From assembly GCA_019752595.1 (NCBI GenBank), contig JAIELV010000001.1, positions 184,486 to 248,485 of the forward strand: 64,000 nt of DNA, written 5' to 3'. The notes beneath the pieces are model-generated. The model did not search any database. It was given only the letters and a program-made list of their open reading frames with translations, and was not told the origin of the DNA. Both the position numbers and the translations under genes were made by a program. This document shows, piece after piece, positions 2,560-59,223 of this stretch (within the stretch, counting starts at the first letter, position 1; every line of letters starts with the position of its first letter). This DNA is from Patescibacteria group bacterium. GTDB lineage: Bacteria > Patescibacteriota > Minisyncoccia > Phycocordibacterales > Phycocordibacteraceae.

Positions 2560-2841
2560 CTAGACTCCTCGTAGACCTATTGATGTTCCTGGAATGTTCT
2601 CGCGGTTGATTACGCGTACGCTTGCCCAAAATGCCTGACGTGGAGTCTGATTCCTTTTGTTTTGTGAGATAAAGTCTGGAAATTCTGTACCAGTTAGATC
2701 AAATACAGGCTCTCCGTTCAATTCGCCGTCGTAGTCTACCTGTAGGCATCCATTTATGTACCAAACCTTTACTGGAGTTCCGTCTCGCAATTTTCCTGGA
2801 AATGTTATCGCTAGAAGTTTTTCTTTTGTCATGGCTTGCAA
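2560..2841 (-). CDS. hypothetical protein (93 aa)
   Basis: ORF only; no recognisable motifs. Confidence 0.3.
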   Translation of the reverse strand: MQAMTKEKLLAITFPGKLRDGTPVKVWYINGCLQVDYDGELNGEPVFDLTGTEFPDFISQNKRNQTPRQAFWASVRVINRENIPGTSIGLRGV

Positions 2842-2929
2842 CTGTATTTCTTATTGCAGTTCTTGTCAAAGAATTTCGTGGTTTTTTGTACGTCAGAGGA
2901 TGTTATTTTCTTTTGTCCACACCCATATA

Positions 2930-2959
2930 TTGCATAAATTTAAAACAATGGTCTAATAT
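2930..2959 (+). promoter_or_regulatory. sigma70-like promoter TTGCAT-18-TAATAT, predicted leaderless transcript
   Basis: -10 ends 7 nt before the ATG at 2967. Confidence 0.3.
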
Positions 2960-2966
2960 ACTGAGC

Positions 2967-3260
2967 ATGGTAAACACCAGACTTTCAGAAGTAGGTCCCG
3001 CCACTCCCCGTCTACTCGATAAAATGCGCGAGGAGCTTGAGGGACTGTCTAATCAAACAGGCATCATTGCGCGTCGCGTGTCGGCCGTTACGCGTGTGCG
3101 TGGCATCAGAAACGCACACATAGGGCGTTTAGGTGCTATTTTCTTCACTACCAACAAGTTCGGCAAGGTTATTTTCTTCCCCAAAGGTGGGCGGATGCTT
3201 TTACACGCTCTCTTTGTCGATCCCGTGCCTGCGCGCTCAATTCAGAGTTCGCGATTGTGA
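2967..3260 (+). CDS. hypothetical protein (97 aa; start chosen at an internal Met of ORF 2802..3260)
   Basis: ORF preceded by a promoter-like element; no family recognised. Confidence 0.3.
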   Translation: MVNTRLSEVGPATPRLLDKMREELEGLSNQTGIIARRVSAVTRVRGIRNAHIGRLGAIFFTTNKFGKVIFFPKGGRMLLHALFVDPVPARSIQSSRL

Positions 3261-3262
3261 AC

Positions 3263-3502
3263 TCACGCTTTCTTTTCCTCCGTCACGCACAACCTACAGG
3301 TCTTTTTATGTTCGAGCAACAGATACACCGCTGATAATGCTACGAGTACGTACATAATTTTAGACATTGAGGCGTCCATACCGCCAAACAGATTACCCAG
3401 CTCCCAGCCTGTTACTGCAAGTAAGCCCCAATTCAGGGCTCCTATAACGACTAAAACGAACGCTACTGTGTGTACGTATTTCATATACGCATAGGATATC
3501 AA
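3263..3502 (-). CDS. DUF378-family small membrane protein
   Basis: 79 aa with two TM segments. GALNWGLLAVTGWELGNLFGG...YVLVALSAVY matches the DUF378 pattern. Confidence 0.55.
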   Translation of the reverse strand: MISYAYMKYVHTVAFVLVVIGALNWGLLAVTGWELGNLFGGMDASMSKIMYVLVALSAVYLLLEHKKTCRLCVTEEKKA

Positions 3503-3546
3503 AAAACCTCGTCTCCGAGGTTTTTATACAGGTACTCTTGTTTTAA

Positions 3547-3750
3547 TTAATCCGCGTTTCTGCCTACGGCGTCTGCGAATGCATCAAACGAATGCGATAC
3601 AAGCGTTGTGCCAAGTTGCGCATTCTGATTAAGAATGTCACTGAGAATAAGTGTTGCGGCATGTGCAGTGTCTACACCGCCAAGCTCACGAGCTTCAGCA
3701 ACAATTTTCACAACAACATCAGGCGTCAATGCAATTTTTTCTGTAGCCAT
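3547..3750 (-). CDS. hypothetical protein (67 aa)
   Basis: ORF only. Confidence 0.25.
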   Translation of the reverse strand: MATEKIALTPDVVVKIVAEARELGGVDTAHAATLILSDILNQNAQLGTTLVSHSFDAFADAVGRNAD

Positions 3751-5171: not shown

Positions 5172-6567
5172 CTTTCCCTATAATACCTGCAATAGTAAAC
5201 GGATCAGGAGACTTTTCCTTACCAGAGAGGGCAAAGCGCAATGGCCACAGCACATTTCCCCTCCCTTCAGCCTCTGCGTACTCCCATACAGCGTTTTTGA
5301 CCGTCTCGGCTGTCCAACTTCCCTCTTGAACTGCCTGCAGGCGTGTGAGAGCTTCTGTAAGGCGAGAAGCGGTACCTGTAGCATCGGCGTTTTTTGGAAT
5401 GAGTTTTACCACCTCTACGTTTGGTGTTTCGGCAAAGTACAACCATTCTCCAGCAGAATCCATCTCTGTCAGATCTTTAAACACCTGAATGCGCTCGTGC
5501 ATTATCGGCACCAATTTTTCAAGCACTCCTTTTGTTTCAAGCGCTGCGCATGTGTCGGAAGACAGAAACTTTTTTGCGTACTGTATAAATTCAGTTTCAG
5601 GAAGTTTTAAAATGTGTTCGCGGTTAAACCATTTTAGCTTCTCTTCATTCAAAATCCCGCCGTGGGTTTGAATTTGATCAATAGAAAATACTTGCACCAG
5701 CTCTTCTTGTGAAAATATTTCTTTCTCACCCCCAGGATTCCAGCCAATAAGCGCTAAGAAATTTACAATTCCTGCAGGTAGGTATCCTTCAGTTCGGTAC
5801 TCAAGAATGTCTTTTGCGCCATCACGCTTGCCGAGTTTCTTTTTCCCGTCCGCACCCAAAATCGGTGGAAGTGTGACAAACACTGGATATGGAATACCTA
5901 ACGCATCATAGAGCGAGAGAAATTTTGGCGTAGACGCAATAAATTCATCAGCCCGAAACACGTGGGTCACGCCCATGTGCAAGTCGTCAATGATGTGTGC
6001 GAAGTTGTAGGTTGGATATCCATCACCCTTAATAAGAATAAAATCGTCGAGTGCCTCTTCTCCAGCCTCAAGTTCTCCGCGAACCGCATCATTCCACTTG
6101 TATCTCTTGATTTCTGGTACACGAAAGCGAAGTGGTTTTTTCCCATCCCACGTTTCAATTTTTTCTGGACGGTGATTTCTATACAAAAACGGGCGTCTTT
6201 CTTCCTCTGCTTTTTTTCGAAACGCTTCAACTTCTGCTTCTGTGTAGGGATCGGGGTACGCGTGACCTTTTGCAATCAGTTCATGCGCAGCCTTCACATA
6301 GGTATCCAAACGCTGAGATTGAATAGCCGAACCAAAAGGGTTTTTCTTGTCAGGGCCGTAATCCCAATCAAGGCCAAGCCACTGCAAGGATTCCTGAATA
6401 TGTTCAAGCGAGCCCGCCACTTCGCGCGCTTTGTCGGTGTCTTCGATGCGCAAAATAAATGTACCGTTTGTTTTACGTGCAATAAGCCACGCAAAAAGGG
6501 CGGTTCTGATTCCACCGATGTGCATGAATCCCGTCGGAGACGGTGCAAAACGCGTAACGACTTTCAT
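5125..6567 (-). CDS. gltX: glutamate--tRNA ligase
   Basis: N-terminal RFAPSPTGFMHIGG (HIGH), KLGKRDG (KMSKS-like), 480 aa class I aaRS. Confidence 0.9.
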   Translation of the reverse strand: MKVVTRFAPSPTGFMHIGGIRTALFAWLIARKTNGTFILRIEDTDKAREVAGSLEHIQESLQWLGLDWDYGPDKKNPFGSAIQSQRLDTYVKAAHELIAKGHAYPDPYTEAEVEAFRKKAEEERRPFLYRNHRPEKIETWDGKKPLRFRVPEIKRYKWNDAVRGELEAGEEALDDFILIKGDGYPTYNFAHIIDDLHMGVTHVFRADEFIASTPKFLSLYDALGIPYPVFVTLPPILGADGKKKLGKRDGAKDILEYRTEGYLPAGIVNFLALIGWNPGGEKEIFSQEELVQVFSIDQIQTHGGILNEEKLKWFNREHILKLPETEFIQYAKKFLSSDTCAALETKGVLEKLVPIMHERIQVFKDLTEMDSAGEWLYFAETPNVEVVKLIPKNADATGTASRLTEALTRLQAVQEGSWTAETVKNAVWEYAEAEGRGNVLWPLRFALSGKEKSPDPFTIAGIIGKDETEKRINRAIDSLS

Positions 6568-15549: not shown

Positions 15550-16971
15550 TTACTGTTTTTTCTTGAGTTCCAACCCCAGCTCATTGAGCTGTTTTTTTGT
15601 GAGTTCCTTTGGAGCTTTCATTACGGATGTCTGGCCACCTCGTGTCATCGGAAACGCCTGTACTTCACGAAGTTGAGTTTCGTTTGCCAAAGTCATTGCA
15701 ATTCTTTCCACTCCGATAGCAATACCACCGTGCGGAGGAGCGCCGTATTTGAATGCCTCGAGCATGTGCCCCACTTTTTCTTGCGTCTCATCATCGGTGT
15801 TGCCCATTACTCGGTATGTGGCTTTCAGAATTTCAGGGTCATGCGCGCGGATAGAACCGCCACCAGTTTCAAAGCCGTTGCAGACCAAGTCGTACTGCGT
15901 GGTCAAAATGTCGCCGATGTTCTCCCCTTTCAGCAAAGATTCCACATGTTCAGGAATCGGCATGGAGAACGGGTTGTGCGTAAACGTCCACTCCCCCTTC
16001 GCCTGCCCTGAGTTTGTCGAAGGGTCTGTTTTCTCGAAGAATGGGAAATTCACGACCCATGCAAACGCAAGAACGCCGTTTGCTTTGTCTTCCTCTGTTC
16101 GCATGTCGAATTTGTCTGCGCCGTATTTTGCCATAGCGTCCTTGTAACTGATTCTTGGGAAGGGCTTTTCTTTTATCTTGTAGCCGAGCTTTTCTACGGA
16201 TTGCGTTATCATCGCTTCCACGGTGCTCATGACGTCCTCCATTTCAACGAACGACATTTCCAAGTCTATCTGCGTGTGTTCAAAGCCACGGTCTGCACGA
16301 AGGTCTTCGTCGCGGATAGCGCGAGCAATCTGGAAGTAGCGTTCCATGCCGCCGACCATCAAGAGTTGTTTGTACTGCTGGGGCGATTGTGGAAGTGCGT
16401 AAAACTTTCCTGGGTTCAGGCGTGACGGCACTACGAAGTCGCGAGAGCCTTCGGGAGTAGATTCAGTAAGAAGTGGAGTTTCAATTTCGACGAAACCCTC
16501 TTTGAAAAGAAATTCACGTGCGTTCTGGATAAAGGCAGAACGCGTGCGGATGTTTTTTTGCATTCTTTCCGAGCGGAGGTCGAGGTAGCGGTACTTGAGG
16601 CGAGCGTCTTCGTCGATTCCTGATGTATCAGCCGAGATATCAAACGGCGGAGTTTCAGATTTTGAAATGAGAGTGATTTTTGAAATTTGCATCTCAATGT
16701 CTCCGTTCTGCATGTTCGGGTTTACGTTTTTCTCTGGGCGTTTTACCACGGTGCCTGTAAATGCCACCACCCATTCAGGGCGTATTTCTTTGAGTTCAAA
16801 CGCGCCCTCCACCTGTACGTCCTGCATCGCAACACACTGAATCTTCCCGCTTCTGTCGCGAAGGTTCAGGAATGACATTTTTGACTGATGGCGGACTACG
16901 TCTACCCAGCCTTTAATAGTCACCGACTCGTCAATGTGGTTTTTCAGGTCTCCTATGAGGGTTCTAGTCAT
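15550..16971 (-). CDS. aspS: aspartate--tRNA ligase, short archaeal/eukaryal-type (no GAD insertion)
   Basis: N-terminal OB fold, class II motifs FEHTQIDLEMSF and GGGSIRAHDPE, 473 aa. Confidence 0.8.
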   Translation of the reverse strand: MTRTLIGDLKNHIDESVTIKGWVDVVRHQSKMSFLNLRDRSGKIQCVAMQDVQVEGAFELKEIRPEWVVAFTGTVVKRPEKNVNPNMQNGDIEMQISKITLISKSETPPFDISADTSGIDEDARLKYRYLDLRSERMQKNIRTRSAFIQNAREFLFKEGFVEIETPLLTESTPEGSRDFVVPSRLNPGKFYALPQSPQQYKQLLMVGGMERYFQIARAIRDEDLRADRGFEHTQIDLEMSFVEMEDVMSTVEAMITQSVEKLGYKIKEKPFPRISYKDAMAKYGADKFDMRTEEDKANGVLAFAWVVNFPFFEKTDPSTNSGQAKGEWTFTHNPFSMPIPEHVESLLKGENIGDILTTQYDLVCNGFETGGGSIRAHDPEILKATYRVMGNTDDETQEKVGHMLEAFKYGAPPHGGIAIGVERIAMTLANETQLREVQAFPMTRGGQTSVMKAPKELTKKQLNELGLELKKKQ

Positions 16972-17078
16972 AAAAAATACTTTATCACGAATACATTTCT
17001 TCTTCCTCTACATTCCTCTACAGATTCCTGGTAGCGCTACATGACTAACTCAATAAATATATATGAGTAAAACTCTAT

Positions 17079-17112
17079 GAATAACTGATATGATATATCA
17101 TATCAGTTATTC
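17079..17112. promoter_or_regulatory. 34-nt perfect palindrome GAATAACTGATATGATATATCATATCAGTTATTC (putative operator)
   Basis: Self-complementary. Lies between the TrpR-like gene's 3' end and the aspS 5' region. Confidence 0.5.
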
Positions 17113-17135
17113 ACGAAGCTTGACCCCTGACTTCT

Positions 17136-17534
17136 TTAGGGGAAAAGGAGGAAATGGAGAGGATATTTTTTCTTTAATCCTTTGTATAGGTTTTTTGCAC
17201 TCAAAGGGTCTTTGCGTGAAGCAAATTCTTTCTCCAAGCCTTGAATAGCGTTTTCATATCCTGGCATTTGGTCTGATAGCCACTTCTGTACGCGCGCAAT
17301 GGTGTCAAAACCTACACCCAATCTTTTGCTTATCTCGCGCGTTTTCTCGCCCTGAATCAAAAGGCGGGCAATGATAATTCTGCGTCCGAGCATCACGCGC
17401 TCGCTTTCTGTAAGCAGGTCGCGCAGGAAGTTCTTGACCGCGCCTTTCCCCTGCACCGAAGCGGCAGCCGTGTACAAACTGTCGAGAAGCACCATTCGCT
17501 CCTTCTCTCCTAAATCTTTCAGTTTTACTTTCAT
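17136..17534 (-). CDS. TrpR-like YerC/YecD-family DNA-binding protein (paralog 1)
   Basis: FLRDLLTESERVMLGRRIIIARLLIQGEKTREISKRLGV...RVQKWL matches the Trp_repressor/YerC family. Start set at MKVKL by alignment with paralog 2. Confidence 0.65.
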   Translation of the reverse strand: MKVKLKDLGEKERMVLLDSLYTAAASVQGKGAVKNFLRDLLTESERVMLGRRIIIARLLIQGEKTREISKRLGVGFDTIARVQKWLSDQMPGYENAIQGLEKEFASRKDPLSAKNLYKGLKKKYPLHFLLFP

Positions 17535-17578
17535 AAAAAGTGAATATACATAATATGAACCAATATACATACAGCTAC

Positions 17579-17606
17579 TAACTGATATGATATATCATAT
17601 CAGTTA
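17579..17606. promoter_or_regulatory. 28-nt perfect palindrome TAACTGATATGATATATCATATCAGTTA (same core as 17079..17112)
   Basis: In the upstream region of the TrpR-like gene, between it and the trpS stop. Confidence 0.5.
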
Positions 17607-17703
17607 TTGAGTGTATAAGAACCATCTAAGAGGTGGAGGTGGGGATTCTGAAAATAGACCTAAAAATAAATCCAAAAATAAATCTAAGAAAGATTATAGC
17701 GGG

Positions 17704-18657
17704 TTATATAGTTAGGCCGATTTTCTCGCGCACTACTTTCATTTTGGCTTCGGCCTGCGAGCGAGCTTTTTCGTTACCTTCTTTCAGGATTGCGTCTACC
17801 GCAGGCCTATCTGATGCATAACGCTCACGGCGTTCGCGCATGGGAGCGATAAATGATTCTAAATCTTCAATGAGCGCTTCTTTCAGGTCTTTGTACTTCC
17901 CTTTCTTTTCTTCATACAGTGGTGCGAGTTCGGCTTCCGATTTCAGAAGGCGGTGGATGGAATATACATTTGCGGGGCGTTCACCCGATGAATCCGTAAC
18001 GATTCTCATCACGGCTTTTGATATTTCGTCTTTCGTGCCGAAAAGCGGAATGGTGTTGCCGTAACTCTTGCTCATTTTTTGGCCGTCGGTTCCCGGAACG
18101 GTGGCGACCTCTTCAAGGAAAATTCCTTTTGGGTCTTTGAATGTTTCTCCGAATGCGTTGTTGAATTTCGATGCCGCTTCGCGCGCGTATTCAATGTGCT
18201 GAGCTTGGTCTTTGCCGACGGGTACTAAATCAGTGTCGTAAAGAAGAATGTCTGCGGCCATCAGCATCGGGTAGTTGAAAAGCCCTGCGTTTGCCTCCAT
18301 GCCTTTCGCCACTTTGTCTTTATATGAATGCGCCTGCTGCAAGAAAGGAACGGTAACCAAACATTCAAAAATCCATGCAAGTTCTGTGTGTTGAGAAACT
18401 TCCGATTGGCGGAAGATAACCGCTTCTTTCGGGTCGAGGCCCGCGCCTAGGTAATCCAAAACGACGTCCAAAGTGTTCTTCTTCAGCTCCGCAGGGTTCT
18501 TGAGGCTCGTCAGGGCGTGGTAATCGGCCACCATCAGCATGCTCTCAAATTCGCTGTGACGGTCTATAAAAGGCTTCAGAGCCCCGAAATAGTTCCCGAT
18601 ATGCAGCTGCCCCGAGGGCTGTAGCCCGGTCAGAAGCCTTTTTTTGCCATTTGACAT
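17704..18657 (-). CDS. trpS: tryptophan--tRNA ligase
   Basis: GLQPSGQLHIGNYFGA (HIGH) and KMSKSYGN (KMSKS). Start set at MSNGKKRLL. Confidence 0.85.
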   Translation of the reverse strand: MSNGKKRLLTGLQPSGQLHIGNYFGALKPFIDRHSEFESMLMVADYHALTSLKNPAELKKNTLDVVLDYLGAGLDPKEAVIFRQSEVSQHTELAWIFECLVTVPFLQQAHSYKDKVAKGMEANAGLFNYPMLMAADILLYDTDLVPVGKDQAQHIEYAREAASKFNNAFGETFKDPKGIFLEEVATVPGTDGQKMSKSYGNTIPLFGTKDEISKAVMRIVTDSSGERPANVYSIHRLLKSEAELAPLYEEKKGKYKDLKEALIEDLESFIAPMRERRERYASDRPAVDAILKEGNEKARSQAEAKMKVVREKIGLTI

Positions 18658-18676
18658 GCCCCAATAATAGCAGAAA

Positions 18677-19582
18677 ATGAAGAGAATTATGGACGAAACA
18701 AATCCTGCCCACGGAATTGATCTCAAGAGTCTCTCGAAGTCTCAACTTCGCCAATTACTTGATGGCGCACTTCAAAAAATTCAGGAGATAAATGAAAAAT
18801 ATCCCAATGTAACTGCGCAATATTCAGAAATAGAGAGAGCTCATGGAGCGTTGTTCAGTGCAGAAAATCCTCTTGCATTGAAAGCAGAGACTGCTACAGA
18901 AGATATAGAAAAATACCGCAGTCAACTTGATTCGGAAATCAAGCCAGAGATTCAAACAACAAGAAATGAGTTGACTGGACTCTTGTCTAGTACGACACTT
19001 GCGACACTCGCAAATGCATATGAACAGGCGAAAACAGAGTACTCACGTGTTCCGCTCAGGAAATACGAAGGCAAGATTCTATCCCACATCTTCACTTTCT
19101 TTTACAATACCGTGTGGCGGAATCTTGATTTCTTTTTCAGCTACGCCTTTTTCGTGGCTCCGCTACTCGCGATTTGTTTCATATTCCTTTACGAGGACAC
19201 AGCAAAGGTCGTGCTGGACACATTGACTACAGCCAACTCAGTACCAACCGCACTCGAGTTAATTTATATAAAGACAATTATTTCGTTGCCTTTGATTTGG
19301 ATTGCTTGGTACGGGCAAAGAAATATCTCTCAAAGAAAGAGAATGTTTGAGGAATACAATCACAAATTACGCGTCGTGCAGATGTACACCATGTTCACGT
19401 CAGATGACACTTCGTATCGATTCTCCGATAATCAGAATAGTCTTAAATTAGAGACTCTTCTTATCGACACTATTGGTAATAACGCAAGTAAAGTTTTTGG
19501 AATGGACGAAACTATTTTGGATAAAATCAAAGAAATTATCCGTGCGAATAAGGGTGGCGCGGAAGAGAAAGACGGTGAGTAG
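18677..19582 (+). CDS. hypothetical membrane protein (301 aa)
   Basis: Long ORF with hydrophobic segments in the C-terminal half. Confidence 0.4.
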   Translation: MKRIMDETNPAHGIDLKSLSKSQLRQLLDGALQKIQEINEKYPNVTAQYSEIERAHGALFSAENPLALKAETATEDIEKYRSQLDSEIKPEIQTTRNELTGLLSSTTLATLANAYEQAKTEYSRVPLRKYEGKILSHIFTFFYNTVWRNLDFFFSYAFFVAPLLAICFIFLYEDTAKVVLDTLTTANSVPTALELIYIKTIISLPLIWIAWYGQRNISQRKRMFEEYNHKLRVVQMYTMFTSDDTSYRFSDNQNSLKLETLLIDTIGNNASKVFGMDETILDKIKEIIRANKGGAEEKDGE

Positions 19583-34890: not shown

Positions 34891-35073
34891 AGGGATTCTA
34901 TTTTACAAAACGTGTACAGTGGTCGTCAAAATTATCAAGATAACGCTTCGGTCACAACTCTCGTCATGCCGTCGCACTCCTCGGTCGCGACCCCGCCTCG
35001 TCCGTTTTCTGAAACAGAAAACATGACTCTGGCCGTCGAAACTGCTATCTAAAAACAAGCAGTTGTTTTTAGA

Positions 35074-35466
35074 TTAGCGTTTCGACCAAGATGGTCTCTT
35101 GCGGGCCTTGAGGAGCCCTGGTTTCTTGCGTTCAACAGCTCTTGGATCGCGCTTCAAGTACCCCGCAGCTTTCAATACACCTCTTTTCGAGGCGTCATGA
35201 GCAAGAATTGCGCGGGCAATGCCGTGCCTTAATGCGTCAGATTGACCTGAAATACCACCTCCCGAAAGGAGGGCGGTGATAGTGAATTTGTCTTCAGATT
35301 CTTTGAGTGGCAAAAGCGCGTTGTCGGCCTGCTCTTTGATTGGGAAGAAATCTGCAATGGTTTTACCGTTTACAGTGATCGACTGCTTTGCAGAAGGTGT
35401 AAGGCGGACGCGTGCTTTTGCGGTTTTTCTTCGGCCAATAGCTTCAATGTAGCGTGCTGTACTCAT
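35074..35466 (-). CDS. rpsI: 30S ribosomal protein S9
   Basis: GGGISGQSDALRHGIARAL...C-terminal KARKRPSWSKR. Confidence 0.9.
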   Translation of the reverse strand: MSTARYIEAIGRRKTAKARVRLTPSAKQSITVNGKTIADFFPIKEQADNALLPLKESEDKFTITALLSGGGISGQSDALRHGIARAILAHDASKRGVLKAAGYLKRDPRAVERKKPGLLKARKRPSWSKR

Positions 35467-46028: not shown

Positions 46029-46697
46029 CTAAAGCCAATCTATCGGCTTTTTACCCTGCTCTGTGAGGTACGTATTCGTTTGGCTAAATGGCTTTGAACC
46101 GAAAAAGCCGTTATACGCGGAAAACGGCGACGGGTGCGGAGATTCAATAACGAAATGCTTTGTACGGTCTATGTGGGCGCCCTTTGCTTTTGCGTAATTA
46201 CCCCATAGTATAAAAACTAAGTGTTCGCGCTCTTCTGAAAGTTTTTTTATAACTACATCAGTAAATTCTTCCCAGCCTTTTTCCTGATGGGAACCTGGCA
46301 TATTTCCCCGCACGGTCAATGTTGCATTCAAAAGTAACACTCCCTGCGTTGCCCAACGGGACAAATCTCCGCTTTTGTTTTTTAGTGGCGCTTTGAGGTC
46401 TGACTCTATTTCTTTAAAGATATTCTGCAGAGATGGTGGAAGCGGAACATTTTGGCCGACCGCGAAGCAAAGCCCGTTTGCCTGCCCTTTACCGTGATAC
46501 GGATCCTGCCCGAGAATCACCACACTCACTTTTTCAAACGGACACAAATCAAACGCACGAAAAATTACTTTCGGTGCTGGATAGACAATCTGCGTGTTGT
46601 ACTCACTCCTAACGAAGTTAGTCAATTTCGCAAAATACGGTTTTTCAAACTCCGCTTCAAGTTCCTTTTTCCACGACGACTCGATAACTACATTCAT
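46029..46697 (-). CDS. ung: uracil-DNA glycosylase, family 1
   Basis: VVILGQDPYHGKGQANGLCF and HPSP motifs. Confidence 0.9.
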   Translation of the reverse strand: MNVVIESSWKKELEAEFEKPYFAKLTNFVRSEYNTQIVYPAPKVIFRAFDLCPFEKVSVVILGQDPYHGKGQANGLCFAVGQNVPLPPSLQNIFKEIESDLKAPLKNKSGDLSRWATQGVLLLNATLTVRGNMPGSHQEKGWEEFTDVVIKKLSEEREHLVFILWGNYAKAKGAHIDRTKHFVIESPHPSPFSAYNGFFGSKPFSQTNTYLTEQGKKPIDWL

Positions 46698-46741
46698 ACC
46701 AGGTATTCTACCCGCATTAGATTGAAAATCCGCAATTCAAA

Positions 46742-46761
46742 GATTACCATATATGTTAATC
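46742..46761. promoter_or_regulatory. 20-nt near-palindrome GATTACCATATATGTTAATC (1 mismatch; putative operator) in the ung/TrpR-like divergent region
   Basis: Seen in sequence. Related to the perfect copy at 47214..47231. Confidence 0.45.
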
Positions 46762-46769
46762 TTTGATCT

Positions 46770-47183
46770 ATGAAGAAAAAGATTGTTGACTTAACCGAAC
46801 CAGAAAGGATAAAGACTCTTGATCTTCTGTACACAGCTGCTGCTTCAATTCGCGGACGCGACGCAATGAAACTGTTTCTCCGTGACCTTCTCACGGAAAG
46901 CGAACGCGTTATGTTGGGAAGACGCATCTGGGTAGCCAGGCTTCTTATGCAAGGACAGACAACTGAAGATATAGCGCGTGATTTAAAAATGAGTCTCAGA
47001 ACTGTGTATCGTGTGCAGTACTGGTTAAAAGATCAATTCCCTGGCTATGAAACTACACTAAAAGAGATGGAAAAAGTTATGGATACCCGAGCAAAACTTC
47101 ACGAGGCCAAGGCAGAGCCTTTCTCATACGCAGCGCTGAAAAAACGTTTTCCTCTCCACTCTCCACTTTCTACTTTTCCCTGA
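46770..47183 (+). CDS. TrpR-like YerC/YecD-family DNA-binding protein (paralog 2)
   Basis: LLYTAAASIRGRDAMKLFLRDLLTESERVMLGRRIWVARLL...RVQYWL. Shares the C-terminal tail KKRFPLH..L..FP with paralog 1. Confidence 0.65.
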   Translation: MKKKIVDLTEPERIKTLDLLYTAAASIRGRDAMKLFLRDLLTESERVMLGRRIWVARLLMQGQTTEDIARDLKMSLRTVYRVQYWLKDQFPGYETTLKEMEKVMDTRAKLHEAKAEPFSYAALKKRFPLHSPLSTFP

Positions 47184-47213
47184 ACCAAAGCCGAAAAAGA
47201 AATTTATAGATTG

Positions 47214-47231
47214 ATTACCATATATGGTAAT
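47214..47231. promoter_or_regulatory. 18-nt perfect palindrome ATTACCATATATGGTAAT followed by a T-run (operator and/or weak terminator)
   Basis: Immediately downstream of the TrpR-like paralog 2 stop. Confidence 0.45.
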
Positions 47232-47265
47232 TTTTTGTTAGAGAGCAGACAAGGTAGCAGACTGT

Positions 47266-47532
47266 TTAGAGTGCGCCTTCTTTTTTCAAAAGCCTTTCTT
47301 TTTCCCCGCGCAAACCGTTATAACCTCCTAAACCGCGAACACCAACCACTCTGTGACAAGGAATACTTTTGTCCTTATTTGAGCGCATGATTGCTCCCAC
47401 AGCGCGTGCGGCTAACGGATGCCCTGCTTTTGCTGCCACCGCTTTGTAGGTCATCGTTTTGCCTTTGGGGATACTTTTTACAACGAGCACTACCTTAGTT
47501 CTAAAATCTTTCTTTGAAAAATCAGAAATCAT
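47266..47532 (-). CDS. methylated-DNA--protein-cysteine methyltransferase, C-terminal (active-site/DNA-binding) domain only
   Basis: LAARAVGAIMRSN...IPCHRVVG...GGY.GL...RLLKKEG matches the Ogt/Ada C-domain, including PCHR. Confidence 0.75.
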   Translation of the reverse strand: MISDFSKKDFRTKVVLVVKSIPKGKTMTYKAVAAKAGHPLAARAVGAIMRSNKDKSIPCHRVVGVRGLGGYNGLRGEKERLLKKEGAL

Positions 47533-47909
47533 AATTTCAGGTTACGCTTTGCCGCAAAGAGCGCGAGTATAGAGTCTGATTGAGTCTCCGAAATAAGGTC
47601 GGGTTTGTTCTTTTTTGTTCTCTCAAGATATGCGCGAACTATGCGGACCTGATCTTCAGGAGAGTAGTGCGCTTCAGGGTAGTGTCGGCGGGTGTCTTCG
47701 TCTATCAAAAAGTAATGAGGTGTCGGCTGGGGCTCTACATATTGCATGAAGTTGCTCAGATTAATCATGGGATCGTAATCTAATTTAAGAACCTCCTGTA
47801 TAGAAGACGTTAATGCTCTTCCTATATCCTGATGCAAAAATCCCCAATCAGGCGGAGGAAGTGAATCCTTTTTTTCTCGGACGTGTTTTTTCTTAGCTTC
47901 CTGAGTCAT
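47529..47909 (-). CDS. hypothetical protein (126 aa)
   Basis: ORF, 4-nt overlap with MGMT. Confidence 0.3.
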   Translation of the reverse strand: MTQEAKKKHVREKKDSLPPPDWGFLHQDIGRALTSSIQEVLKLDYDPMINLSNFMQYVEPQPTPHYFLIDEDTRRHYPEAHYSPEDQVRIVRAYLERTKKNKPDLISETQSDSILALFAAKRNLKL

Positions 47910-47933
47910 ACAAACAGTGTAGTACTATCAACC

Positions 47934-48752
47934 TTAATCGAAAAGTTTTTGTTCATTTTTCTCAGACTTCGCAGATTTATTCTTCTCCACGTGCGCTTTA
48001 AATTTCTTACCTGCCATGTCGCGGTATCGGCAGTAATCGCAGTCCTCGGTCGCTTCTGGAATTGCGGTGCTCGTAAGGCATGCTTTTATATCGCGAATTG
48101 TTCCGTCAACCCAGGACGTATTCCCGACGTGCGGTATGAGGGTGACTTCAAATTCCAGTTTTGCATCAAAAGCTTCTCTATCTTTCGATGCATTCGCGTA
48201 CACGAAATATCCTGTATCTGAAACCGTAAAGCCGTTCATGCGGAAAAGCCACTGATAGATTTCCATCTGTCGCTTGTATCCGTTATGCCACTCTTCTTCC
48301 AACGCCACTATGCTCTCGTCTTTACTGGTTGATTTATAGTCAACGATAATCAACTCTCCTTTTGGATTCACCCATACGTCGTCAACCGCACCCGAAACGG
48401 TCATGCCTGTTTCTGGGTGTGCGTAATCGATTCCCTTAAAGTTTTCTCTCCAAATATCCATTTTTGGATGTTGAAACGGCACAGCGTCAACACCGTACTT
48501 TTCCATGAGTGGGTGCGCTGTTTTACCCGCACGATGTATGTCGAATTCTTTCTTAAAGAGGGCGTCGACTGCGGAGTTTAAGTTAAACGGAAAACCAGGA
48601 GGTCGGGCCGTGCCAAGTGCGTTATCAAGGTAAAAACAGCGCGGACATTCCTGAAACAAGCCAATTTTTGAACGCGACAACCGCCATCGGGGTCCGCCGA
48701 AATTCCAATCTGCTTTTCTGTCAGGTTTGTAATAAAGACTCATACTCCGCAC
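47934..48752 (-). CDS. PD-(D/E)xK nuclease, Cas4/RecB-nuclease-like, with 4 Cys (CPRC...CDYC)
   Basis: IIVDYKSTSK...EIYQW core. N-terminal CxxC and C-terminal CxxC, as in Cas4/AddB Fe-S nucleases. Confidence 0.45.
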   Translation of the reverse strand: MRSMSLYYKPDRKADWNFGGPRWRLSRSKIGLFQECPRCFYLDNALGTARPPGFPFNLNSAVDALFKKEFDIHRAGKTAHPLMEKYGVDAVPFQHPKMDIWRENFKGIDYAHPETGMTVSGAVDDVWVNPKGELIIVDYKSTSKDESIVALEEEWHNGYKRQMEIYQWLFRMNGFTVSDTGYFVYANASKDREAFDAKLEFEVTLIPHVGNTSWVDGTIRDIKACLTSTAIPEATEDCDYCRYRDMAGKKFKAHVEKNKSAKSEKNEQKLFD

Positions 48753-53770: not shown

Positions 53771-53831
53771 ATCAAAAATATATCACGCTTGGCGCTTCGT
53801 TTAAGAAAAAACCGCCTCACGGCGGTTTTTG

Positions 53832-59176: not shown

Positions 59177-59208
59177 AAACAAAAAAGTGCTATACTAAGT
59201 ATAGCACT
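59177..59208 (-). terminator. rho-independent terminator (minus strand)
   Basis: Perfect 10-bp stem AGTGCTATAC/GTATAGCACT with a 3-nt loop. On the minus strand it is followed by TTTTTTGTTTG. Confidence 0.65.
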
Positions 59209-59223
59209 TTGGCGGGCGTTTTA

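Follow-up and report, generated by a model that had tools for sequence, protein, structure and literature searches.

The window analyzed here, a stretch of 64,000 nucleotides (64 kb) from a Patescibacteria group bacterium (contig JAIELV010000001.1), carries a gene of the TrpR superfamily at 46770..47183 on the plus strand that is bracketed by two copies of an A+T-rich palindrome. The arrangement as a whole is best explained by an autorepressor with its own operator before the start codon and a second copy past the stop codon, a reading that is considered quite probable. The gene would encode a dimeric helix-turn-helix repressor, and the cognate operator of this protein would be the 18–22 bp palindrome GATTACCATATATGGTAATC. 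The upstream copy would overlap the -10/start region of the gene's own, probably leaderless, promoter, by which the protein would repress its own synthesis. The downstream copy, located past the (ancestral) stop codon and before a convergent neighbor, most likely acts as a second site aiding the first—either by cooperative binding or by looping across about 470 bp. In addition, it may insulate the small autoregulated unit against incoming and outgoing transcription, acting as a protein roadblock combined with a weak hairpin terminator. A paralog at 17136 appears to be built alike and is predicted to read a different palindrome; it differs at the base-touching residues (Arg66 and Asp77 versus Glu66, Arg77, and Tyr80 in the 46770 protein). 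Binding, repression, and the function of the downstream copy are deduced from sequence comparison.

The 46770 protein has 137 aa as assembled, features Glu66, Leu76, Arg77, and Tyr80 at its specificity positions, and corresponds to NCBI K2P56_01315 (Patescibacteria group bacterium, contig of 831 kb) with 100% identity. It matches the Pfam family Trp_repressor (PF01371) with 47.8 bits at a cut-off of 27; the 17136 gene reaches 55.5 bits (cut-off 27). Both proteins remain under the NCBIfam cut-offs of the two equivalogs: TIGR02531 for YerC/YecD (HisR), with 32.3 bits for the 46770 gene and 27.8 bits for the 17136 gene at a cut-off of 42.2; and TIGR01321 for TrpR, with 21.1 and 31.3 bits at a cut-off of 67.25. 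The AlphaFold2 (AF2) model of the 46770 protein is all-helical, with a mean predicted local distance difference test score (pLDDT) of 72.7 and helices at residues 65–72 and 76–88. Its top Foldseek matches in the PDB are the TrpR/YerC structures 3KOR, 3FRW, 2OZ9, and 1TRO at probabilities of 0.95–0.99, with weak E-values because a monomer model is compared with an intertwined dimer. A profile search of the PDB sequences returns 3FRW at 1.6e-10, and the closest solved relatives by sequence are the YerC/HisR structures 3FRW, 3KOR, and 3G1C. As modeled, the protein is predicted to have a TrpR-like fold with the helix-turn-helix in helices D/E.

The palindrome pair can be read directly from the sequence and is as given in the preliminary description: perfect at 47214–47231 and with one mismatch at 46743–46760. 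The extent needs a small correction, since the repeat shared by the two copies is slightly longer than was stated there. The predicted upstream operator spans 46742..46763—without strand, as for all operators here—and is centered 18 nt before the ATG. Its core at 46743–46760 is ATTACCATATATGTTAAT, whose right arm has T instead of G as the single mismatch, and the asymmetric pair is that at position 5; taken to its full extent, this copy is a 24-bp palindrome (46740–46763) with one asymmetric pair. The predicted downstream operator spans 47213..47234 with the core 47214–47231, ATTACCATATATGGTAAT, a perfect 18-bp palindrome, and lies between the regulator gene and a convergent MGMT-like gene (47266–47532, minus strand). 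Common to both copies is the repeat GATTACCATATATG[T/G]TAAT[C/T]TT at 46742–46763 and 47213–47234, which is identical at 20/22 positions. The two sites are separated by 471 bp. At up to three mismatches, ATTACCATATATGGTAAT has just two matches in the window, where 0.04 are expected, and none of 100 shuffles (0/100) gave two or more.

The paralogous TrpR-like gene lies at 17136..17534 on the minus strand between trpS and aspS. It encodes 132 aa with Arg66, Phe76, Asp77, and Ala80 at the corresponding positions, and the two open reading frames (ORFs; 46770–47183 and 17136–17534) share 54% identity. The predicted operators of this paralog carry AACTGATATGATATATCATATCAGTT. The upstream one is located at 17580..17605 and is centered 58 nt before the ATG; the downstream one, at 17083..17108, forms the center of a 36-bp perfect palindrome (17078–17113). 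These two are the only matches of AACTGATATGATATATCATATCAGTT in the window. The earlier claim that the two paralogs carry different palindromes is thereby borne out, each palindrome being found in the window at its own gene alone. A scan of the entire 64-kb window for further TrpR-like ORFs, further palindromes of the same class, and stray half-sites found none.

The bracket is a trait of the family. A set of 162 loci was found via the protein alignment of relatives (A1) and consists of 80 loci from species-representative genomes, 80 from metagenomes, and the two window genes; nearly all are labeled Paceibacteria, Parcubacteria, Kaiserbacteria, or similar. As a site was counted any palindrome with an ATATAT center, at least 8 of 10 symmetric pairs, and a distance of at most 120 bp from the gene. 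By this definition, an upstream site (≤120 bp before the start) is present in 134/154 evaluable loci, a downstream site (≤120 bp past the stop) in 125/150, and sites on both flanks occur in 113 of the 146 evaluable loci. The arrangement of a gene with a palindrome pair, for which the preliminary description had proposed to search related genomes, is recovered in about 80–87% of the evaluable flanks. Away from the gene flanks, ∼20 such sites occur in ∼520 kb (∼one per 26 kb), and six of these bracket additional TrpR-like genes; the enrichment at the flanks of family genes is >100-fold. The consensus of the family sites is aaTAnTAT[C/G]ATA|TAT[G/C]ATAnTAtt; for the site counts given above, the ATATAT center served as a search criterion. 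A few loci feature a different palindrome center, namely, L005, L055, L058, L061, L078, and L079. Several genomes contain two to four paralogs, whose half-sites differ from one another. The upstream site is centered between 0 and -40 from the ATG in 108/122 proximal sites, most commonly at -17. The downstream site lies at a median of 23 nt past the stop codon and is centered ≤15 nt past it in 29/109 loci. The distance between the two sites has a median of 475 bp and ranges from 441 to 596 bp.

Some of these loci bear additional features. Locus L005 contains at 1411–1888 a second, far more divergent TrpR-like gene (139 aa, E-value of 6.6e-10 to the family profile), which a palindrome of its own, AACTATACGATATATCGTATAGTT, brackets at -19 and +42; hence, this design is not confined to the core subfamily. 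Arrays of 4–7 cognate sites with a spacing of ∼50–90 bp are present on both flanks in L013 (same as L119) at 2796–3593 and also in L043, L139, L143, and L087. Tandem paralog pairs occur in L100 (278–652) and L149 (1609–2001), and the upstream copy of L100 has a frameshift within the helix-turn-helix and is probably a pseudogene. In L012, a hybrid palindrome lies at position 5645 inside an mnmA-like ORF: its left half matches the site of the L010 paralog and its right half that of the L012 paralog. Both paralogs stem from one metagenome-assembled genome, and the hybrid could be a heterodimer site or chance.

The footprint of the protein can be estimated from the similarity of the two copies, which was measured across a non-redundant set of 110 loci. 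At positions 4–9 from the center, the copies before and after the same gene show 93–99% identity; this value drops to 55–67% at position 10 and equals the background (about 28%) at position 14 and beyond. As the identity is limited to approximately position 10, the footprint would amount to 18–20 bp. The two copies are scored in this footprint test as identical over positions 1–9 on either side of the center. Operators of TrpR and HisR (YerC) are of this size: Both proteins recognize palindromes of 20 bp, and autoregulation is frequent among them (PMC9413887).

Within this footprint, half-site and protein vary together, as judged by rules derived from 137 non-identical family members. The mutual information of protein columns with half-site positions has its maxima at the helix-turn-helix residues 66, 76, 77, and 80. 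Asp77 occurs with G at position 4 (48/48), and any other residue at 77 occurs with C at this position in all except two cases. Likewise, Arg66 is found with G at position 9 (28/29), Tyr80 with T at position 8 (17/21), Pro76 with A at position 6 (34/34), and Asn77 with T at position 5 (26/27). Arg with guanine and Asp with cytosine on the opposite strand are classic contacts. In the hhalign profile alignment, residues 66, 76, 77, 78, 80, and 81 correspond to Arg69, Ile79, Ala80, Thr81, Thr83, and Arg84 of E. coli TrpR, and exactly these are the six DNA-contact residues listed for TrpR (PMC9413887). Arg81 is invariant and Thr78 nearly so (≥90%) in the 24-sequence alignment A1. These two residues would read the invariant center, and the four variable residues would track the variable arms.

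Common descent is not enough to explain this covariation, because residue and base changed state together repeatedly and because identity within and between groups is nearly equal. A neighbor-joining tree built with a masked helix-turn-helix shows ∼9 changes of the Asp state and ∼11 of the G/C state, and the two states go together at all tips except two; the expectation after shuffling on the same tree is ∼40 changes. Pairs with 78–81% identity outside the helix-turn-helix differ in Asp77/G4, and the mean identity is 0.62 within the Asp group, 0.61 within the non-Asp group, and 0.59 between the groups. The extra paralog L042b, which stood outside the rule derivation, obeys the Asp77/G4 rule; the far more distant paralog L005b breaks it. 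Both window paralogs match the family-derived rules: the 17136 paralog with Arg66 and G9 as well as Asp77 and G4; and the 46770 paralog with Glu66, Arg77, and Tyr80 alongside A9, C4/C5, and T8. The nearest relatives of the 46770 gene by helix-turn-helix (L092, L082, and L083) have the same inner half-site, TTACCATA. The comparison of recognition helices that had been suggested beforehand hence gives a consistent code, and the notion that each paralog has an operator pair of its own, which diverged together with the regulator, gains comparative and computational support. The palindromes are almost certainly the binding sites of the regulator protein itself.

The position of the upstream copy suggests what binding there would do. 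The genome looks leaderless, as judged by the sequences before its genes: A Shine–Dalgarno-like core is found in 1/59 long ORFs of the window, and in 46% of these 59 ORFs the hexamer TAnnnT has its end 5–9 nt ahead of the start codon, compared with 2–9% at control positions. The same signal is present at related Paceibacteria loci, where it is weaker (28%). TAnnnT shortly before the start codon is a published signature of leaderless genes (PMC3160421). For the 46770 gene, the candidate -10 hexamer of this type is TAATCT at 46757..46762 on the plus strand, which is part of the right arm of the upstream palindrome, with its end 7 nt ahead of the ATG. A promoter scan yields as an alternative the -10 TACCAT (46745–46750), also inside the palindrome, with TTGAAA (46722–46727) 17 nt apart on the plus strand. 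Both candidate -10 hexamers fall within the upstream palindrome. Because the site lies over the likely -10, repression of its own synthesis by the 46770 protein is the natural inference, as in TrpR and HisR.

The C-terminal part of the protein is a candidate for contacts between dimers. Family members carry an extension of ∼40 aa with the tail consensus KKKYPLHFLLFPxPK (alignment A1). In the last 20 residues of A1, K-K-K-Y-P-L-H-F-L-L-F-P is nearly invariant and is followed by a basic P-K-P-K-K-K; the linker before it is variable. Judged by its sequence, the tail looks like a short docking motif and is a candidate oligomerization element. In the 46770 gene, a 7-bp tandem duplication of CTCCACT (47154–47160 and 47161–47167, plus strand) shifts the frame after His130. 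The annotated frame ends in KKRFPLHSPLSTFP before its stop codon, and the other frame (47155–47214) reads STLHFLLFPEPKPKKKFID up to a stop codon, with a tail, LHFLLFPEPKPKKKFID, that equals the family consensus. The ancestral stop codon of the unshifted frame, TGA at 47212..47214 on the plus strand, abuts the downstream palindrome. The conserved tail that had been described as shared by the two window paralogs is hence only partly real, and the tail similarity is partly an artifact of the frameshift. Either the 46770 copy has lost the conserved tail by a real mutation, which would be inactivating or truncating, or the assembly is in error.

Several observations weigh against an autorepressor with two operators. 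At the promoter, the family loci feature no -35 that is conserved at a constant spacing from the site, and the upstream site of the 17136 paralog is centered at -58, outside the core promoter. The spacing of the two sites shows no helical phasing (36 periods of 9–12.5 bp; best R of 0.14, Rayleigh p of 0.12), and the C-terminal tail is not associated with the presence of a downstream site, a comparison of low power given the few genes that are devoid of the tail. Many sites form the centers of perfect palindromes of 34–62 bp (L007 at 3478, L034 at 3462, L117 at about 3440, L027 at 615, L142, and others), and the outer arms of these long palindromes are not shared between the two copies, so that a protein footprint alone is insufficient to explain them. 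These arms could have a hairpin function or have grown neutrally through template switching at quasi-palindromes. Last, the frameshifted tail together with the one asymmetric operator position may mean that the 46770 gene is decaying.

The downstream copy could act as a looping or cooperative partner of the upstream copy, as a protein roadblock, or as an RNA hairpin and weak terminator. The pairing of the sites itself is the only positive evidence for looping. A different division of labor is possible, if rather doubtful: Only the upstream copy would be an operator, and the downstream copy—having arisen by copying of the operator—would be an RNA hairpin that ends or stabilizes the transcript and halts convergent transcription. 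The RNA fold of the 46770 downstream palindrome has −9.5 kcal/mol (z of −3.4) with an A/U-rich stem of 8 bp that is followed by U6, and the hairpin of the downstream site of the 17136 paralog reaches −28.9 kcal/mol; both fit a hairpin. The symmetry of downstream copies also exceeds the part shared with the upstream copy: They stay symmetric to positions 18–20, and arms of at least 15 nt are more common among them (48/155 downstream versus 30/160 upstream). The downstream neighbor is convergent in 100/137 loci, which fits this reading. A hairpin, however, requires self-complementarity alone, yet at positions 4–9 the downstream copy follows the upstream one (with the 93–99% given above) and is tied to the contact residues of the protein just as closely as the upstream one. 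Furthermore, U-tracts are not enriched, with at least five T in the next 8 nt for 11% of downstream and 7% of upstream sites, and a terminator scan made no call at the 46770 downstream copy, which has too few G–C pairs. The genome uses ordinary terminators elsewhere, namely, canonical bidirectional intrinsic ones at 3502–3525 and 53807–53830 with A5, a G+C-rich stem, and T5, which contrast with the A+T-rich palindromes past the regulator genes. The T-run noted in the preliminary description is real (47230..47237 on the plus strand, with its first two bases inside the palindrome), and a role as terminator is possible at this locus; the U-tract is not a family trait. A hairpin role would be compatible with the two-operator autorepressor as an added function. 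As a general rule, an operator function of the downstream site for the downstream gene is rejected: The neighbor is mostly convergent, and the presence of the site is independent of orientation (83% and 84% for the two orientations).

A broader reading seems improbable in the light of the same data. According to it, the TrpR-like family, which is widespread in Paceibacteria-type Patescibacteria, would consist of self-contained cassettes of a protein plus two sites, with the sites at the gene ends serving as sequence-addressed boundaries and the control of a regulon not being the main job. In such small leaderless genomes, the sites would act as roadblocks, terminators, insulators, or units that propagate themselves, and the cassettes would have mutually orthogonal specificities with a readable code (Asp77 with G4, Arg66 with G9, Tyr80 with T8, and others). 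This would explain the sites at 3′ ends and convergent junctions including the orphans, the long perfect palindromes, and the shifted position of the window cassettes.

That the gene and its two palindromes form a mobile or recombining cassette—with the palindromes as recombination or insertion sites whose arms surround the 6-bp ATATAT center and the protein as an end-binding or accessory factor—is very unlikely. The copies are both direct and inverted repeats around a single gene, which is often oriented against its neighbors; both window cassettes are shifted by one gene compared with relatives; and several paralogs occur per genome, sometimes in tandem, with the flanks of L039 sharing a 48-nt segment. 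All this would suit a mobile unit. The unit, however, contains no transposase or recombinase, its sole protein being a helix-turn-helix protein of 137 aa, and paralogs of the same genome are only ∼50% identical, which excludes recent copying. At the "empty" positions of relatives, no solo-site footprints are found, and viral contigs contain no relatives. The identity of the copies ends sharply at approximately position 10, unlike in a duplicated target or a conversion tract, and the covariation at the TrpR contact positions points to ordinary duplex recognition. Generic repeats of the REP type or of the miniature inverted-repeat transposable element (MITE) type, or chance A+T-rich palindromes unrelated to the gene, can practically be dismissed: They are A+T-rich and contain -10-like hexamers, of which the intergenic DNA of this genome has many, but a search of the 64-kb window for the palindromes as common intergenic repeats finds each of them just twice, on the flanks of the cognate gene, with each half-site likewise at its own gene alone, and the flanks of family genes are enriched >100-fold in sites whose half-sites covary with the protein.

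The two-operator autorepressor resembles E. coli TrpR in its Pfam family PF01371, in a palindromic operator of 18–20 bp, in the alignment of contact positions, and in a predicted overlap of the operator with its own promoter, as judged by the candidate -10 elements of the 46770 gene. It differs from TrpR in its score (21 versus 67 bits at the TrpR equivalog cut-off), in the ∼40-aa C-terminal extension of the window family that ends in the conserved YPLHFLLFP, and in the presence of several paralogs per genome that have their own half-sites and a second operator past the stop codon. Among the solved and described relatives, HisR (B. subtilis YerC) is the nearest by sequence; it binds a 20-bp palindrome, and about half of the hisR genes are preceded by their own site (PMC9413887). 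The 46770 protein nevertheless remains below the YerC/YecD cut-off (32.3 versus 42.2 bits). HisR is usually single-copy with one lineage-conserved motif and a regulon of his genes, whereas no conserved target genes were found for the window family, whose motif has a fixed ATATAT center and arms that vary by paralog.

Cognate repressor sites on both sides of the regulated promoter or within a few hundred bp of it are featured by λ CI (OL/OR), phage 186 CI (FL/FR), and LacI (O1/O2), for which DNA looping is proven; OL and OR of λ flank the repressor gene cI itself. The window family is similar to these systems in having two cognate sites within looping distance (471 bp; family median of 475 bp). 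The folds, however, are unrelated, looping is proven there and inferred here, and neither a phasing nor an oligomerization element was detected in the window family. REP-associated tyrosine transposase units (REPtrons) also consist of a gene flanked by cognate palindromes, and the classes of protein and palindrome co-evolve. The REPtron protein is an HUH transposase whose substrates are single-stranded hairpins, and tens to hundreds of copies of its palindromes are dispersed. In contrast, the window protein is a helix-turn-helix protein, and its sites are essentially confined to its own flanks plus rare orphan sites. The λ gene cI is reported to be translated from a leaderless mRNA as well (PMC10491246).

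For the TrpR superfamily, a 20-bp palindromic operator and autoregulation are already known. The mechanism at the upstream site would be conventional; what stands out is the family-wide bracket, the readable code, the downstream site, and the long palindromes. What is different here is the second operator past the stop codon, the many paralogs with distinct arms and a fixed center, the clear residue–base code, and the lack of a conserved regulon. A conserved second operator past the stop codon is an unusual design. Transcription control in Patescibacteria (Candidate Phyla Radiation) is almost unstudied, and these organisms are mostly uncultured; a search of the paper library for TrpR-like regulators in this group returned nothing relevant. 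By comparison alone, a concrete regulator family is gained together with its predicted operators. The family amounts to a natural specificity experiment: dozens of paralogs with the same fold and the same site center, in which a few contact residues and the matching bases are changed. It may yield amino-acid-to-base rules for helix-turn-helix proteins of the TrpR type and is a possible source of orthogonal repressor/operator pairs.

The divergent neighbor of the regulator is ung, the gene of uracil-DNA glycosylase, at 46029..46697 on the minus strand (NCBIfam ung equivalog, 321 bits). The upstream copy lies within the 72-bp divergent ung/regulator spacer, as described before; the co-regulation of ung that had been proposed on this basis is not supported, given its separate -10 and the variable upstream neighbors. 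The likely -10 of ung is TAGAAT at 46705–46710, 7 nt before the ung start and 33 bp from the operator, so that the operator—with its center ∼54 bp upstream of the ung start—is clear of it. In the closest relatives, the divergent neighbor at this place is an MGMT-like gene and not ung. Across the family loci, no conserved regulated neighbor was found: The upstream divergent genes are Obg, tRNA ligases, MGMT-like proteins, primase, GrpE, and others, and the orphan sites adjoin unrelated genes. The neighboring genes are heterogeneous and point to no ligand.

Around the 46770 locus, the genes form a cluster of DNA-repair type: ung; an 88-aa MGMT-like DNA-binding-domain protein (47266–47532); and a Cas4-like protein. 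The latter is encoded at 47934–48752 on the minus strand, has 272 aa, and matches a Cas4-like PD-(D/E)XK nuclease weakly (E-value of 1.1e-6, under the cut-off); this gene is kept beside the regulator in relatives. The position of the cassettes was compared for the window regions 15550–18726 and 46029–48752 with relatives that have kept the neighbor order (L002, L005, L095, L031, L066, L069, and L134). Both window cassettes sit one gene over: The order in relatives is ung, mgmt, regulator, and cas4-like, and that in the window is ung, regulator, mgmt, orf126, and cas4-like; for the other paralog, the order in relatives is trpS, aspS, and regulator, and that in the window is trpS, regulator, and aspS. 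Between its trpS and aspS genes, L134 has a solo site of the type that belongs to the cassette itself, at a distance of 27 nt upstream of aspS.

The window contains two other long palindromes, which are unrelated to the TrpR-like sites. The first, ATCTAAAAACAAGCAGTTGTTTTTAGAT at 35047–35074, has arms of 12 bp. The second, AAAGTGCTATACTAAGTATAGCACTTT at 59184–59210, has arms of 13 bp, is located in a gap between genes, and includes a -10-like TATACT; another regulator may use it as an operator.

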